Assembly: GCA_016188475.1 (NCBI GenBank)
Contig: JACPHT010000005.1
Coordinates: forward strand, 1 to 54,623
Reading direction: 5' to 3'
Length of the DNA: 54,623 nucleotides
Source of the DNA: Candidatus Uhrbacteria bacterium
Lineage (GTDB): Bacteria > Patescibacteriota > Patescibacteriia > UBA9934 > GWF2-40-263
The notes under the pieces are model-generated. The model saw nothing but the letters and a program-made list of their open reading frames with translations. It ran no database searches and had not been told where the DNA came from. Within the stretch, counting starts at the first letter, position 1; each line of letters starts with the position of its first letter. This document shows, piece by piece, positions 7,623 through 26,745 of this stretch. The position numbers were made by a program, and so were the translations under genes.

Positions 7623-7677
7623 TGTGGATAAGTGCTATTTTTTTCTTCAAACTACCAAAAGTTGGAAATTATCCACC
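7623..7677. promoter_or_regulatory. DnaA boxes
   Basis: TGTGGATAA at 7623-7631 (perfect); TTATCCACC at 7669-7677. Confidence 0.55.
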
Positions 7678-21609: not shown

Positions 21610-22233
21610 ATGTTCAAACACAAAGACCAACGTGTCGGCGTTTTTATCGACACTCAAAACATGTACTACAGCGCCAGACACCTTTTTCAACGAAAAGTTA
21701 ATTTCAAAAGCATTGTTGAAGACGCAGTCGCAGGTCGCCTCCTCATTCGCGCACTCGCTTACGTTGTTAAAACAAAAACAGCTGATGAGCAACCTTTCTT
21801 TGATGCTCTTCAAAAATCCGGAATCGAGACTCGCGAAAAAGATTTGATGGAATACGCATCCGGCCACAAAAAAGCAGATTGGGATGTCGGACTTGCGATT
21901 GATGTAGTTCACATGCTAGACATACTCGATGTTGTTGTGATCGTTTCAGGAGATGGAGATTATCTACCGCTTGTCGAACACATTCAAAGTCGTGGGCGCA
22001 TCGCTGAGGTTATGGCATTTGGTGAAACAACGTCGTCAAACTTGGTTAATTACGTTGATGACTATATTGATCTTTCTCAAAATAAAAAACGATATTTAAT
22101 CGGCCCGATCGTAAAATCAGATGGAAAGGATGAAATGGGTGAAGAAAAGGAAGAGGATGAAGAAGACGATTTCTTTATTGAACCGCCAAAAAATGATCAA
22201 GGAGATTCGAGAACGCGAAGACTAGAATTTTAA
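21610..22233 (+). CDS. NYN-domain (LabA/DUF88) protein
   Basis: VFIDTQN, KADWDVGLAID, VSGDGDY. Confidence 0.92.
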   Translation: MFKHKDQRVGVFIDTQNMYYSARHLFQRKVNFKSIVEDAVAGRLLIRALAYVVKTKTADEQPFFDALQKSGIETREKDLMEYASGHKKADWDVGLAIDVVHMLDILDVVVIVSGDGDYLPLVEHIQSRGRIAEVMAFGETTSSNLVNYVDDYIDLSQNKKRYLIGPIVKSDGKDEMGEEKEEDEEDDFFIEPPKNDQGDSRTRRLEF

Positions 22234-22243
22234 TTTTAAAAAT

Positions 22244-24454
22244 ATGGCACAAAAAAACCAGTTCCAAACAGAATGGGGAGGAAAGATATTAACGATCGAG
22301 GTTGGAAAATACGCAAGTCAAGCTGGAGGATCTTGCGTTGTCCAATATGGCGATACTGTAGTGCTTGCGGCGGCAACAATGAGCAATGAAACAAAAGAAA
22401 GCATGGGATTTTTCCCACTCACTGTTGAATTTGAAGAAAAACTTTATGCGGCTGGACGCATTAAAGGCAGTCGTTTTATTAAAAAAGAAGGTAGGCCAAC
22501 TGATGAGGCTGTTCTTTCAGCACGTTTTATTGATCGCGCAATCCGTCCGTTATTTGATGATCATATCCGAAATGAAGTTCAAGTTGTTGTTACAACACTT
22601 GCTTTTGATGGAGAAAACGACCCCGATGTTTTGGGACTGATTGGTGCAAGTTGTGCGCTTCATATTAGTGATATTCCATGGAACGGTCCGATCGGCTGTA
22701 TTCGTGTCGGACAAATCGAAGGGGAGTGGGTAATAAACCCAAGTTATACAGCACGAGATAAATCACTTCTTGACCTCGCAATCGCTGGAACAAAAGAAAA
22801 AATCATAATGGTCGAAGCTGGCGCAAATGAAGCGCCTGAAGAAACTGTTTTGGAAGGATTTTGGTTTGGACAAAAACATATTGACGCGCCAATCAAACTG
22901 ATCAAAGAAATTCAAGCTGTTGTTGGAAAAGAAAAACGAAATTTGATTATTGAAAAAACAGAAGAAGAAAAAGAAGTCGAAGCTATTGCTGTTCCATTTC
23001 TTGTTGATCAAATCAAAGAGTTATTTTTTGGAACTCCGAAAGCTACAAAAGCCGACCGCAATCAACAAAAACAAATCCTAAAAAATAATCTAAAATCATT
23101 CTTGATCGAAAAAAGTGTTAAACCGGAATTGATTCACATTGGAACAGATATGATACTTGAAATTCTTGAGCGTGAAGTCTCAAGATCAATTCTTGAAAAT
23201 AACAAACGTGTTGATGGACGATCAATCACGCAAATCCGACCGCTTGTGAGTGAAGTCGCTGTTCTTCCTCGTGTTCATGGCAGTGGACATTTTATGCGTG
23301 GAGAAACACAAGTGCTTACCGTTGTAACACTTGGAGCTCCAGGGGACCAACAAACTCTCGATGGAATGGAACTTGTTGGAACAAAACGATTTTTCCATCA
23401 CTACAATTTTCCTCCATATTCAGTCGGGGAAGTGAAGCCAATGCGTGGGCCATCTCGCCGCGATATTGGTCATGGAGCTCTAGCAGAAAAAGCTATTCAA
23501 CCAATGCTTCCTGACAAAGAAAAATTTCCATACACAATTCGTGCGGTTTCCGAAGTATTCGGCTCAAACGGATCAAGCTCAATGGGATCAACTTGCGGAA
23601 CAACTTTGGCGCTCATGGATGCTGGTGTTCCTATAAAGGCTCCGGTTGCTGGAATAGCGATGGGGCTTGCTACTGATGAAAAAGGAAAATGGAAAGTAAT
23701 AACTGACCTACAAGATTTGGAAGATGGAAAAGGTGGAATGGATTTCAAAATCGCTGGATCAAAAACCGGAATCACTGCGATTCAAATGGACACAAAAACA
23801 GATGGTCTAACTCGAGAAATTATTGAAACAACAATAAAACAAGCTCGCGAAGCCCGTTTGGAAGTGTTGGACGTTCTAACTTCTGCAATCGCAGAGCCTC
23901 GTCCAGATCTTTCGCCATTTGCTCCACGAATTATTGTCATGCACATCAGTCCGGAACTCATTGGAAGCGTTATTGGGCCAAGCGGTAAAACAATCAATGA
24001 AATTATCTCAACAACCAACGTTCAAGCAATTGACATCGAGGATGACGGACTTGTAATGATCACCTCAACTGATGCGCAAGGCGCGATAAAAGCGCAAAGT
24101 ATTATTGAACAACTCACTCGGCAAGTCGTTGTTGGAGAAATTTACAAAGGAAAAATAACACGCGTTATGGATTTTGGCGCGATTGTCGAATTTTTACCAA
24201 AGAAGGATGGAATGGTTCATGTAAGCAACATGGCACCGTGGCGTGTTGACAAAGTAAGTGATATTGTAAAAATGGGAGATGAAGTGAGTGTCAAAGTTAT
24301 GGACCTTACTCCTGACGGAAAAATCAGTCTTTCAATGAAAGATGCGCCAGGGAACATATATCCTGAAAGACCAGCTCATAGTGATCGTCCACAAGCTCCA
24401 TCACGCGATCGAGGTCCTCGCAAACCATTTAGACCGTTTAACAGAAATCCATGA
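22244..24454 (+). CDS. pnp: Polyribonucleotide nucleotidyltransferase
   Basis: Two RNase PH domains, SNGSSSMGS, MDFKIAG, KH and S1 domains. Confidence 0.98.
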   Translation: MAQKNQFQTEWGGKILTIEVGKYASQAGGSCVVQYGDTVVLAAATMSNETKESMGFFPLTVEFEEKLYAAGRIKGSRFIKKEGRPTDEAVLSARFIDRAIRPLFDDHIRNEVQVVVTTLAFDGENDPDVLGLIGASCALHISDIPWNGPIGCIRVGQIEGEWVINPSYTARDKSLLDLAIAGTKEKIIMVEAGANEAPEETVLEGFWFGQKHIDAPIKLIKEIQAVVGKEKRNLIIEKTEEEKEVEAIAVPFLVDQIKELFFGTPKATKADRNQQKQILKNNLKSFLIEKSVKPELIHIGTDMILEILEREVSRSILENNKRVDGRSITQIRPLVSEVAVLPRVHGSGHFMRGETQVLTVVTLGAPGDQQTLDGMELVGTKRFFHHYNFPPYSVGEVKPMRGPSRRDIGHGALAEKAIQPMLPDKEKFPYTIRAVSEVFGSNGSSSMGSTCGTTLALMDAGVPIKAPVAGIAMGLATDEKGKWKVITDLQDLEDGKGGMDFKIAGSKTGITAIQMDTKTDGLTREIIETTIKQAREARLEVLDVLTSAIAEPRPDLSPFAPRIIVMHISPELIGSVIGPSGKTINEIISTTNVQAIDIEDDGLVMITSTDAQGAIKAQSIIEQLTRQVVVGEIYKGKITRVMDFGAIVEFLPKKDGMVHVSNMAPWRVDKVSDIVKMGDEVSVKVMDLTPDGKISLSMKDAPGNIYPERPAHSDRPQAPSRDRGPRKPFRPFNRNP

Positions 24455-25707
24455 GCCAACAACTCCACATACAATTAACAAGATACCAAAAAACAACCCG
24501 CCGACCAAGGTGGGTTGTTTGGCTTCCGGCTCTATCTTTTCTTTTAATTTTTATATTTATCTATCAGATAACAACACTTTTTCTCACAAGAAACACTGTT
24601 TTTTCTGCTGCACCTGAAAATACTAAAATAGCAATCCAACTTTTGGTAAATGAAAAAACATTGCCAATTCTATCAAAAATCCTAAACACGGTTCCACTTA
24701 TTTCAAACAGAAGTTTCACACTGAAAGACATCCAACCTTTTGTTCATGGTGAAATTGGATGGTTTTTTCACGAAGATGGGGGCAGATCAATTGCGGTTCG
24801 ATCAAAAAAAAATGAACTTCCAACAAAACTTTTTGATGCAAACCAAATAATAGTTCAACAAATAAATTCTGATGTTTTTCTGCTAACAGACAAACTTCAA
24901 CCAATAGGCGGAATCAAATCAAAACATTCACTTGGAAACCTCATACCGTCATTTAAGCAAAAACTTGGAATGTTTTATGAGAAAGGGAAAAAGTCTGTCG
25001 TGATATCAGCGACAAAAGATGGAATCGTAATCCCTCTTTCAAATCAGGAAGCAATAAGCACATTTGATAGCAAAATAATCCAAGAAAATACATATATAGC
25101 ATTGAAACTTCCTCTTTTGGAAAAGGAAAATTTCGATATGTACCAAACTTTGTTTAAAGATCAGAATATCTTGCGATCTTTTTTTTCAACAGATGGGTTT
25201 TTGATGATGAAAGAAATCGAAAATCCAAAGTTTTTGCTTGTTTCAAAATCTGAGATGAACGATGAAGAAAAAATATCATTCTTACAAACAGAAATTGCGT
25301 TGAAAAATCCTTCAATAATCACTAAAAAACTTCCAGATAATACTCAAATGCAGGAATTTGTGTCAGATCCGAGTCTTGTATCGGTTGAACAAAAAATGAT
25401 CGAAGGTTTGGAATTCTACAAGGCGTCAACAAGTAATGAAGCTATTTTTGCAAGTAAAAAGGATGACTTAATAATTTCAAATAACGAGGAAATGATCAGA
25501 ATCTGGCTAAAAAATGAACAGAATAATAAAGTGTTAAAGATTTGTGACGCAAATGTCGCATTTTTATCTTTGAACGAATTTATTGAATCAAATTCGTTCA
25601 CGACCGAATTTTATAAAAACGATGTTTTAAGAACTCTCGCCGCAAATTTTAGGGTCGCATCTCTCGAAAAGAGCTGGAATTCAACAAAATTGAGGTTGTG
25701 TTTTTAA
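24451..25707 (+). CDS. Hypothetical protein with N-terminal membrane anchor
   Basis: 418 aa ORF overlapping the pnp stop (ATGA). Confidence 0.75.
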   Translation: MSQQLHIQLTRYQKTTRRPRWVVWLPALSFLLIFIFIYQITTLFLTRNTVFSAAPENTKIAIQLLVNEKTLPILSKILNTVPLISNRSFTLKDIQPFVHGEIGWFFHEDGGRSIAVRSKKNELPTKLFDANQIIVQQINSDVFLLTDKLQPIGGIKSKHSLGNLIPSFKQKLGMFYEKGKKSVVISATKDGIVIPLSNQEAISTFDSKIIQENTYIALKLPLLEKENFDMYQTLFKDQNILRSFFSTDGFLMMKEIENPKFLLVSKSEMNDEEKISFLQTEIALKNPSIITKKLPDNTQMQEFVSDPSLVSVEQKMIEGLEFYKASTSNEAIFASKKDDLIISNNEEMIRIWLKNEQNNKVLKICDANVAFLSLNEFIESNSFTTEFYKNDVLRTLAANFRVASLEKSWNSTKLRLCF

Positions 25708-25708
25708 C

Positions 25709-25859
25709 TGTGGATAACTTATCAATAAGTATATATTATTGTGGATAACTTTTTAAGTTTTTCAAACCATTTGAACACATCATTGTTTCAAAAAAACATT
25801 TTTTTGCTAAATTAAGCCAAACTTTGCTTATTGATAAAATTTATTTTTTCTGATATCAT
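25709..25859 (+). promoter_or_regulatory. Two perfect DnaA boxes, palindromic motif and sigma70 promoter
   Basis: TGTGGATAA at 25709 and 25740; TTTGCTAAATTAAGCCAA at 25803-25820; TTGATA-17 bp-(TGa)TATCAT. Confidence 0.6.
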
Positions 25860-25863
25860 ATAA

Positions 25864-26256
25864 GTGTGACCAAAATGGTCGCATCGTTCTTTATCTACAA
25901 TCTTGGGAGGTTTTCCGAAAGCTTTTTTGCAGGTGTCCCACGCTTGCTATCGCTATTCGGAAAACGTCTCACCGCTCTACTGTTCTGATAATAAAACAAA
26001 AACAGAACAGAAATAAATCTAGGTTAACTCGCAATAATATGAATTCATTCGAATTCATCGTGGGTAAAACCATGGAATGGTAGAGAGGTTGTGAACTTAG
26101 AGGAATAAATATGTGTTCACAGGGCGTCGAGTCGTACAGTTCAAATACTTGGACTTTACAGCCCGACGCCTATAGAACCGTATTTCCTCAATACTACGGG
26201 GCATAGCCGAAAAACACACTACATGTTACGCGGCTCACTGCCCTTCTTCTTTTTTT
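25864..26256 (+). ncRNA. Candidate large structured non-coding RNA, family unassigned
   Basis: No long ORF; about 10 stems with G-U pairs on the + strand; promoter directly upstream; closing stem followed by a U-tract. Confidence 0.6.
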
Positions 26257-26370
26257 AGGAATATCTTTATTGATTCACTTTTCAATCAACTCGACATTGT
26301 CTCCATTTCTTCATAACTCTTTGCACAGATTCTGATATACTGATAGAGTATTTAGACTCAAAGAAACAAT

Positions 26371-26745
26371 ATGAACAAAGACTTTTACAATAAAATGAAG
26401 CAAAAACTGATTGAAGAAAAACAGGGGCTCGAACTTGAATTGTCAAAATTTGCGCATCGAAATCCAAAAGCGGCTGAAACTGATTTCAGCACGGATTTCC
26501 AAAACTTGGGCGATAAAGAAGATGAAAACGCATCCGAAGTGGCACGCTTTTCTGATAACCTTTCCCTTGAAGAAGAATTGGAAAAAGCATTGCGAGATGT
26601 TGAAAGCGCTCTTGCGATGATTGAAAACGGGACGTACGGAAAATGTAAATACTGTGGTCAAGAAATTGATGAACGCAGACTTTCCGCTCGCCCAACTTCA
26701 ACTTCATGCATTCAGTGTAAAAAAACATTGACACAAGAAATGTGA
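26371..26745 (+). CDS. TraR/DksA C4 zinc-finger protein
   Basis: GTYGKCKYCGQEIDERRL.ARP...CIQC. Confidence 0.92.
   Translation: MNKDFYNKMKQKLIEEKQGLELELSKFAHRNPKAAETDFSTDFQNLGDKEDENASEVARFSDNLSLEEELEKALRDVESALAMIENGTYGKCKYCGQEIDERRLSARPTSTSCIQCKKTLTQEM

Follow-up and report, generated by a model that had tools for sequence, protein, structure and literature searches.

Structured bacterial RNAs longer than 300 nt are, to our knowledge, rare, and those of known function are ribozymes or the cores of major ribonucleoproteins; large junctions with invariant sequence are typical of ribozymes and similar RNAs. OLE, the raiA motif, ROOL and GOLLD are orphan large structured bacterial ncRNAs. 6S RNA (SsrS; RF00013) has a rod-like fold in which the 5′ and 3′ ends are paired and a two-sided bubble lies at the center, and it binds the RNA polymerase holoenzyme and serves as template for product RNA. 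Protein-sponge sRNAs of the CrcZ type carry several A-rich motifs. Here we describe a locus in a Candidatus Uhrbacteria genome, positions 25864-26256 (+ strand) of a contiguous 54,623-nucleotide stretch of DNA (the window below), that we think probably encodes an undescribed structured ncRNA with its own promoter and terminator, and whose product would act in trans as the RNA of a ribonucleoprotein.

The window is contig C8 of an 893-kb, 10-contig genome (G000) that is 97.7% complete. A previous reading of the same DNA, made from its letters alone (the sequence-only reading), had described the tract as ORF-free, preceded by a promoter and strongly pairable on the + strand, and all three descriptions hold. 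Neither strand of 25864-26256 has an ORF longer than 40 amino acids; the promoter (Table 1) is a close match to consensus and its extended −10 element (block TGnTAttAT) is kept across the alignment of 25 family sequences; and the MFE of the + strand is −141.5 kcal/mol compared to −88.7 ± 5.2 for 100 dinucleotide shuffles (z = −10.3; 0 of 100 as good), while the − strand fold of the same tract reaches a z of only −3.9. The lack of ORFs, the promoter, this fold score and a terminal GC-rich hairpin with a U run together indicate that the tract is real, far beyond chance. It is non-coding. The RNAs of the three same-genus genomes are 77-84% identical, the indel runs within the genus are nearly all 1 nt long (6 of 6, 6 of 7 and 8 of 9 runs are not multiples of three), and the short ORFs within the RNA tract are not shared between the three genomes. 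The gene is present in a single copy in its own genome, and its length is ~390 nt in the window and ~330-400 nt in relatives; both ends of the transcript are inferred, the start near 25864 from the promoter spacing. The locus therefore has the features by which a free-standing structured ncRNA gene is generally recognized, namely a promoter, a terminator, no conserved ORF and a covarying structure (below).

Table 1. Features of the RNA locus and its immediate surroundings (positions in the window).
Feature	Position	Strand	Description or basis
418-aa protein (hyp418)	24451-25707	+	start overlaps the pnp stop (24451-24454); position conserved throughout the order
Promoter of the RNA	25831-25859	+	TTGATA −35, 17-nt spacer, TG-extended −10 TATCAT; 10 of 12 consensus positions
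P0, 5′-terminal hairpin	25864-25884	+	MFE fold; different sequences, only in some relatives
Unpaired pyrimidine block	25884-25892	+	UCGUUCUUU; nearly invariant in family, order and class alignments
Pc, 5′ strand (closing helix of three-way junction)	25896-25903	+	pairs with 26086-26093; MFE fold and duplex test
P1 arm	25905-25970	+	25905-19/25956-70; inner hairpin 25929-33/25943-47; covariation
P2 arm	25975-26085	+	helix 25975-84/26076-85 closes large asymmetric loop; family covariation
A-rich unpaired strand	25993-26007	+	nearly invariant; within P2 loop
P2b/P2c hairpin	26022-25/26068-71; 26027-31/26061-65; 26040-47/26051-58	+	inside P2 loop; covariation
Pc, 3′ strand	26086-26093	+	MFE fold and duplex test
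P3 long arm	26100-26189	+	outer helices, core 26122-29/26164-71, inner helices to apical loop near 26145
P3 outer helices	26100-05/26184-89; 26109-13/26179-83; 26115-18/26175-78	+	nested
Intrinsic terminator	26199-26256	+	stem 26199-26209/26231-26243, U-rich tail 26244-26256; MFE fold
Extended −10-like promoter of dksA	26318-26339	+	TGaTATACT; read from sequence; separate from RNA

The architecture of the RNA is conserved and consists of a 5′ pyrimidine block, a three-way junction (Pc, P1 and P2), a long irregular arm (P3) and the terminator. In the family alignment, which was built with MAFFT and is blind to structure, RNAalifold finds 51 pairs, 33 of them with compensatory changes. Among 50 counted pairs, 93.4% of the alignment cells are paired compared to 82.3% after shuffling (0 of 500 shuffles as high) and 39-52% when the partners are slid by 1-3 columns, 33 pairs changed on both sides, and the cells changed on both sides number 155 compared to 46.7 in the shuffles; the aligned sequences are kin, and these shuffle statistics therefore overstate independence. 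P1 accounts for 11 of the counted pairs, of which 7 changed on both sides, and its loop is conserved and C-rich (CCCCAC in most relatives). Pc encloses P1 and P2; its flanks pair better than shuffles in 39 sequences (mean z = −0.99), by sequence pairs that differ among genera. The P2 loop is highly asymmetric (~37 nt on one side vs 4 nt on the other). The segment 3′ of the 5′ strand of P2 is unpaired and nearly invariant in the family, order and class alignments, and two helix segments, ACU/GGU and GGUU/AACC, are invariant.

Fifteen of the 19 pairs of the P3 core changed on both sides, and in all 37 relatives the MFE fold joins the two flanks of this core, by 6 or more pairs in every relative but one (mean duplex z = −1.37). 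At the class level it is the structure of the P3 arm that is conserved and not its sequence. A sequence-only profile of the P3 core recovered just 4 of the 20 loci of the order and 1 of 34 from the class or phylum, and the 170 nt that lie 3′ of the core domain fold with z values of −2.4 to −9.0 relative to shuffles in all 23 class-level loci that were computed (of 28), as a long hairpin that in most loci has a terminator-like hairpin after it. In the class-level core itself, again in a structure-blind alignment, 87.8% of cells are paired compared to 77.2% after shuffling, and 15 of 19 pairs changed on both sides. A hairpin and T-run stand at the end of the RNA in most relatives. A simple terminator scan misses the terminator in the window, presumably because of its 21-nt loop; the same scan scores P0 together with a U-rich stretch (25864-25893) as terminator-like.

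Many of the stems that had been drawn from the single sequence agree with this structure. Covariation supports the outer helix of P1, atgaattc/gaattcat, gggcgtcg/cgacgcct with its inner helices, and the terminator stem followed by its T-run. Others need adjustment: the inner hairpin of P1 covaries over a shorter span than the 25929-36/25940-47 first assigned to it, the hairpin 25864-84 is real but restricted to some lineages, and a helix does close the junction loop, but the one that covaries is 25975-84/26076-85 and not 25971-80/26080-89. The second closing helix, Pc, was not among the stems originally proposed. Three stems fall away. The pairing ctgttctg/cagaacag is lacking in one of the three same-genus genomes and overlaps P2, and the stretch is an unpaired A-rich strand in other genomes; tgtgaac/gttcaca and ccgta/tacgg (the latter absent already from the same-genus genome G002) are not conserved and compete with nested helices that recur in relatives. 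The proposed kissing-loop pseudoknot between GAGGAA and UUCCUC must also be given up. The two segments are indeed complementary, but they form the nested outermost extension of P3, which is present in the unconstrained MFE fold of the window, and the flanks pair in relatives. A second pseudoknot, between CCCACG of the P1 loop and CGUGGG (26060-65), was considered and rejected because CGUGGG varies in step with its P2b partner but the loop sequence does not change.

Is this a known RNA? At gathering thresholds the Rfam 15 matches in the window are five tRNAs and nothing else. Relaxing the limit to E ≤ 10 over 25650-26400 gives eight matches, with E values of 0.46-8.2 and scores far below gathering, and RNase P, tmRNA, SRP, 6S and T-box are not among them; across 20 homologous loci (E ≤ 5) no Rfam family recurs. 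This agrees with the sequence-only reading, which had seen no hallmarks of RNase P RNA, tmRNA, SRP RNA or a T-box at the locus. Two of these RNAs are found elsewhere in the genome. tmRNA (RF00023), an RNA with tRNA-like ends and a reading frame for the tag, is at C10:102752-103142 (140.9 bits), and ARAGORN finds none in the window. The genome's only RNase P RNA (RF00010) match is at C3:44542-45127 (L001; 63.4 bits, E = 1.8e-19, compared to a gathering score of 100); it takes up 586 nt against the 367 positions of the model and probably represents a diverged RNase P RNA rich in insertions. SRP RNA (RF00169, RF01854), marked by its domain IV motif, was not detected in the genome at E ≤ 10 or in 61 relatives. 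The M domain of its partner protein Ffh was seen in none of 31 relatives and in none of the 151 genomes that sample the phylum, and a search of the genome itself for an SRP54-type GTPase (Ffh or FtsY) turned up none, the best match having 18.5 bits. The SRP pathway thus appears to be missing from these genomes. Absence of SRP subunits is a trait of many CPR bacteria, as stated in a passage of one study (PMC8080830), and the locus is accordingly not taken to be an SRP RNA.

T-box leaders (RF00230), which precede aminoacyl-tRNA synthetase or amino-acid genes, have no match at E ≤ 10, and the genes downstream are dksA-like and lspA. Neither Hfq nor a Ro/TROVE domain was found in the genome (97.7% complete, above). 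A bacterial Y RNA was considered and rejected on the lack of a TROVE domain in the genome and of an Rfam match, and an Hfq-binding sponge like CrcZ was rejected because the genome has no detected Hfq and the RNA has a single A-rich block. The one CrcZ match, in one homologous locus, is weak (18.9 bits compared to a gathering score of 95; E = 0.24) and falls in a variable region near the terminator and not in the A-rich strand. A search of the literature on RNAs of Uhrbacteria, Patescibacteria and Parcubacteria, at the level of search results, returned no published description. Judged by these searches, the family and its fold match nothing described and it is a new RNA family, although its general kind, the orphan structured ncRNA, is familiar.

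The RNA is conserved across a whole class of the ultra-small CPR/Patescibacteria. With BLAST it is detected in 25 of 61 genomes, a count that includes the window's own, and in 22 of 36 sampled genomes of the same family, and nhmmer homology spans its full length. A covariance model of the 5′ half (R1, 217 positions) matches 84 of 151 genomes of an order sample, exactly once in each. All seven families of the order carry the RNA: 60 of 65 genomes in f1, the window's family (records titled Candidatus Uhrbacteria), 2 of 2 in f2, 1 of 1 in f3, 8 of 64 in f4, 4 of 5 in f5, 5 of 9 in f6 and 3 of 4 in f7. A model of the core (R2, 141 positions) matches 54 of 151 genomes of a class sample, once per genome, and 50 of these lie outside the order (50 of 147 other class genomes). 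It matches 3 of 144 genomes from other classes of the phylum. When five class genomes without an R2 match were searched with filters off, one (G162) gave a match upstream of dksA with E = 4.4e-4, another (G172) a weak match (E = 0.052) and the other three nothing; because weak matches lie at the expected place in two of these five, the R1 and R2 counts are lower bounds.

Among the three loci in other classes, L205 has dksA-lspA downstream. In L204 (G330) the core motifs are almost unchanged, and both L204 and L206 (G361), which are weak R2 matches, are followed by a convergent gene for a DinG-like helicase C-terminal domain (Helicase_C_2), a shared context that suggests a real, differently placed homologue in these lineages. 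A pattern scan of a collection of species genomes gave 62 loci, made up of 33 homologues (E ≤ 1e-51), full-length save one truncated locus, and 29 chance matches. The records of the 33 are titled Candidatus Uhrbacteria (17), Patescibacteria group (4), Parcubacteria group (1), "bacterium" (2) and "uncultured Gammaproteobacteria" (9), the last being third-party bins whose label is given as deposited. A strict pattern matched 10 of 401 phylum genomes, which says nothing about distribution, as a reversed-pattern control gave ~10 hits and the window's own copy was missed.

The order of genes around the RNA is pnp, a membrane-anchored gene of unassigned function (hyp418), the RNA, a dksA/yteA-like gene, lspA and comM. 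A gene with an NYN domain (PIN-like nuclease fold; 21610-22233, +) lies directly upstream of pnp, so two genes of RNA metabolism stand just upstream of the RNA locus. The hyp418 protein belongs to no Pfam family, and its sole NCBIfam row is insignificant (E = 0.059; 12.5 bits compared to a cut-off of 445). It is unlikely to be a partner of the RNA, since its basic N-terminus followed by one predicted membrane helix places most of the protein probably outside the cell. Two perfect copies of the DnaA-box consensus are present at 25709-25717 and 25740-25748 (−), 31 nt apart; they precede the RNA promoter by ~85-120 nt. Elsewhere in the window a perfect copy occurs only once, at 7623-7631, and copies with at most one mismatch number 24 in the window vs 13.1 expected. 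The pair may act in regulation or belong to an origin.

The position of the RNA raises the alternative that it is a cis-acting leader (a riboswitch or attenuator) of dksA-lspA, in which formation of the terminator at 26199-26256 would depend on a ligand or factor bound to the conserved 5′ domain; the sequence-only reading had suggested a long riboregulator of these genes. We regard such a role as unlikely. The arrangement speaks for it: all 26 family loci have dksA and lspA immediately after the RNA on its strand (the upstream hypothetical gene is undetected in one), all 20 order loci have lspA downstream and 19 of them dksA, most class loci and one locus of another class have the same gene order, and the RNA ends in a terminator. 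However, dksA usually has its own promoter. TGnTAnnnT occurs within the 90 nt upstream of dksA, past the RNA terminator, in 40 of 68 loci vs 10.2 expected, and within the family it is found in 23 of 25, mostly 30-40 nt before the ATG. Furthermore, in four loci (L173, L176 and L182 of family f14, and L181) convergent genes follow the RNA, or dksA lies on the opposite strand or is missing downstream, and one genome of the window's own order (G041, locus L144) has lspA after the RNA, with no sign of a dksA-like gene in between. Finally, ~110 nt of P3 arm stand between the conserved 5′ domain and the terminator, and no alternative partner for the terminator strands was seen to be conserved. A cis leader in general lies on the same strand as its genes, directly upstream and with no promoter between, and this locus differs in the last respect, and in some lineages in the others. 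The other possibility named in the sequence-only reading, a stand-alone large ncRNA, is the one borne out by the promoter, the terminator, the single copy, the covariation across order and class, and the lack of an Rfam family. Read-through of the terminator into dksA, or some cis effect, is possible, because in most lineages the RNA immediately precedes dksA-lspA and shares their strand.

It is also improbable that the locus is a highly divergent version of a known housekeeping RNA. With RNase P RNA, tmRNA and SRP RNA dealt with above, 6S RNA is the only realistic candidate. In favor of it, the 6S model, which detects only 5 of 14 control genomes, finds no 6S RNA in the genome itself or in 101 class genomes; the new RNA has a single copy, wide conservation and a strong promoter, it adjoins a DksA-family gene, and its Pc and P2 helices, large loop and P2b/P2c hairpin loosely recall the closing stem, bubble and terminal stem of 6S RNA. 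Against this, the 6S model has no match in 25650-26400 or the 20 homologous loci even at the permissive thresholds, the RNA is about twice the usual 6S length, its 5′ and 3′ ends are not mutually paired, its loop is ~37 nt against 4 nt, and it has two extra conserved arms. The covarying structure is a three-way junction with a separate long arm and a terminator and not a rod. A new class of ribozyme, or of other catalytic or structural RNA, we consider highly improbable: its length of more than 300 nt, invariant unpaired junction blocks and invariant helix segments (above), and its retention in ~0.9 Mb genomes across the whole class would suit such a role, but there is no evident substrate or cleavage site and no repeat or mobile-element context.

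We therefore return to a free-standing RNA that acts in trans. Its single copy, its fixed position across the class and its invariant unpaired blocks argue for an important, sequence-specific function, and since these blocks and the invariant helix segments look like recognition surfaces, we infer that the RNA acts with a protein partner, as the RNA component of a ribonucleoprotein. The invariant unpaired blocks would be the sites of contact with protein or RNA, and the variable helices would be spacers. Our preferred, and quite tentative, guess at its role is a regulator tied to the transcription machinery and somewhat like 6S RNA; its basis is the long-lasting DksA-family neighbor and the fact that no canonical 6S RNA is detectable in the class. 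Binding to PNPase, binding to the ribosome and catalysis are possible. In a broader and equally speculative form, the RNA may be an essential ribonucleoprotein RNA of a new class with a housekeeping role in much of the Patescibacteria, either as an RNA-polymerase- or ribosome-associated regulator working with the DksA-like factor or as a catalyst; if so, it has been retained in ~0.9 Mb genomes that have lost even SRP. Complements of four conserved unpaired blocks have few, scattered matches in the genome itself, and no antisense target is evident among them.

With a defined gene, a structure backed by covariation and two search models (R1 and R2), the function of this RNA is now directly testable, and adding the family to Rfam could improve the annotation of CPR genomes. 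Its class-wide conservation means that even the tiny genomes of Patescibacteria keep an important RNA.

How does the RNA compare to the described systems? Like T-box and riboswitch leaders, it is long and structured, stands 5′ of genes and closes with an intrinsic terminator, but it has no Rfam match, the genes after it are neither aminoacyl-tRNA synthetase nor metabolic genes, the next gene is served by a promoter of its own, and in some lineages the RNA stands alone. With sponges of the CrcZ type it shares an A-rich stretch, here invariant, unpaired and made of A-A-N repeats, which is a candidate protein-binding site, but it has one such stretch and not several, and Hfq was not found in its genome. 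Like 6S RNA it is a single-copy, widely conserved, promoter-driven and terminator-ended ncRNA beside a protein gene, with possible read-through, and it contains a helix-loop-helix element in genomes where no other 6S RNA is detectable; it departs from 6S RNA in its lack of a model match, its roughly twofold length, its unpaired ends, its very asymmetric loop and its additional P1 and P3 arms. OLE, the raiA motif, ROOL and GOLLD differ from it in that it has no Rfam match and a Patescibacteria host, and in that it occurs once per genome at a fixed chromosomal site between pnp and dksA and not in a mobile or phage context. It is like them in its size (more than 200-300 nt), its intricate covarying structure, its invariant junction nucleotides, its restriction to a lineage, and a function that is unassigned or only newly emerging.
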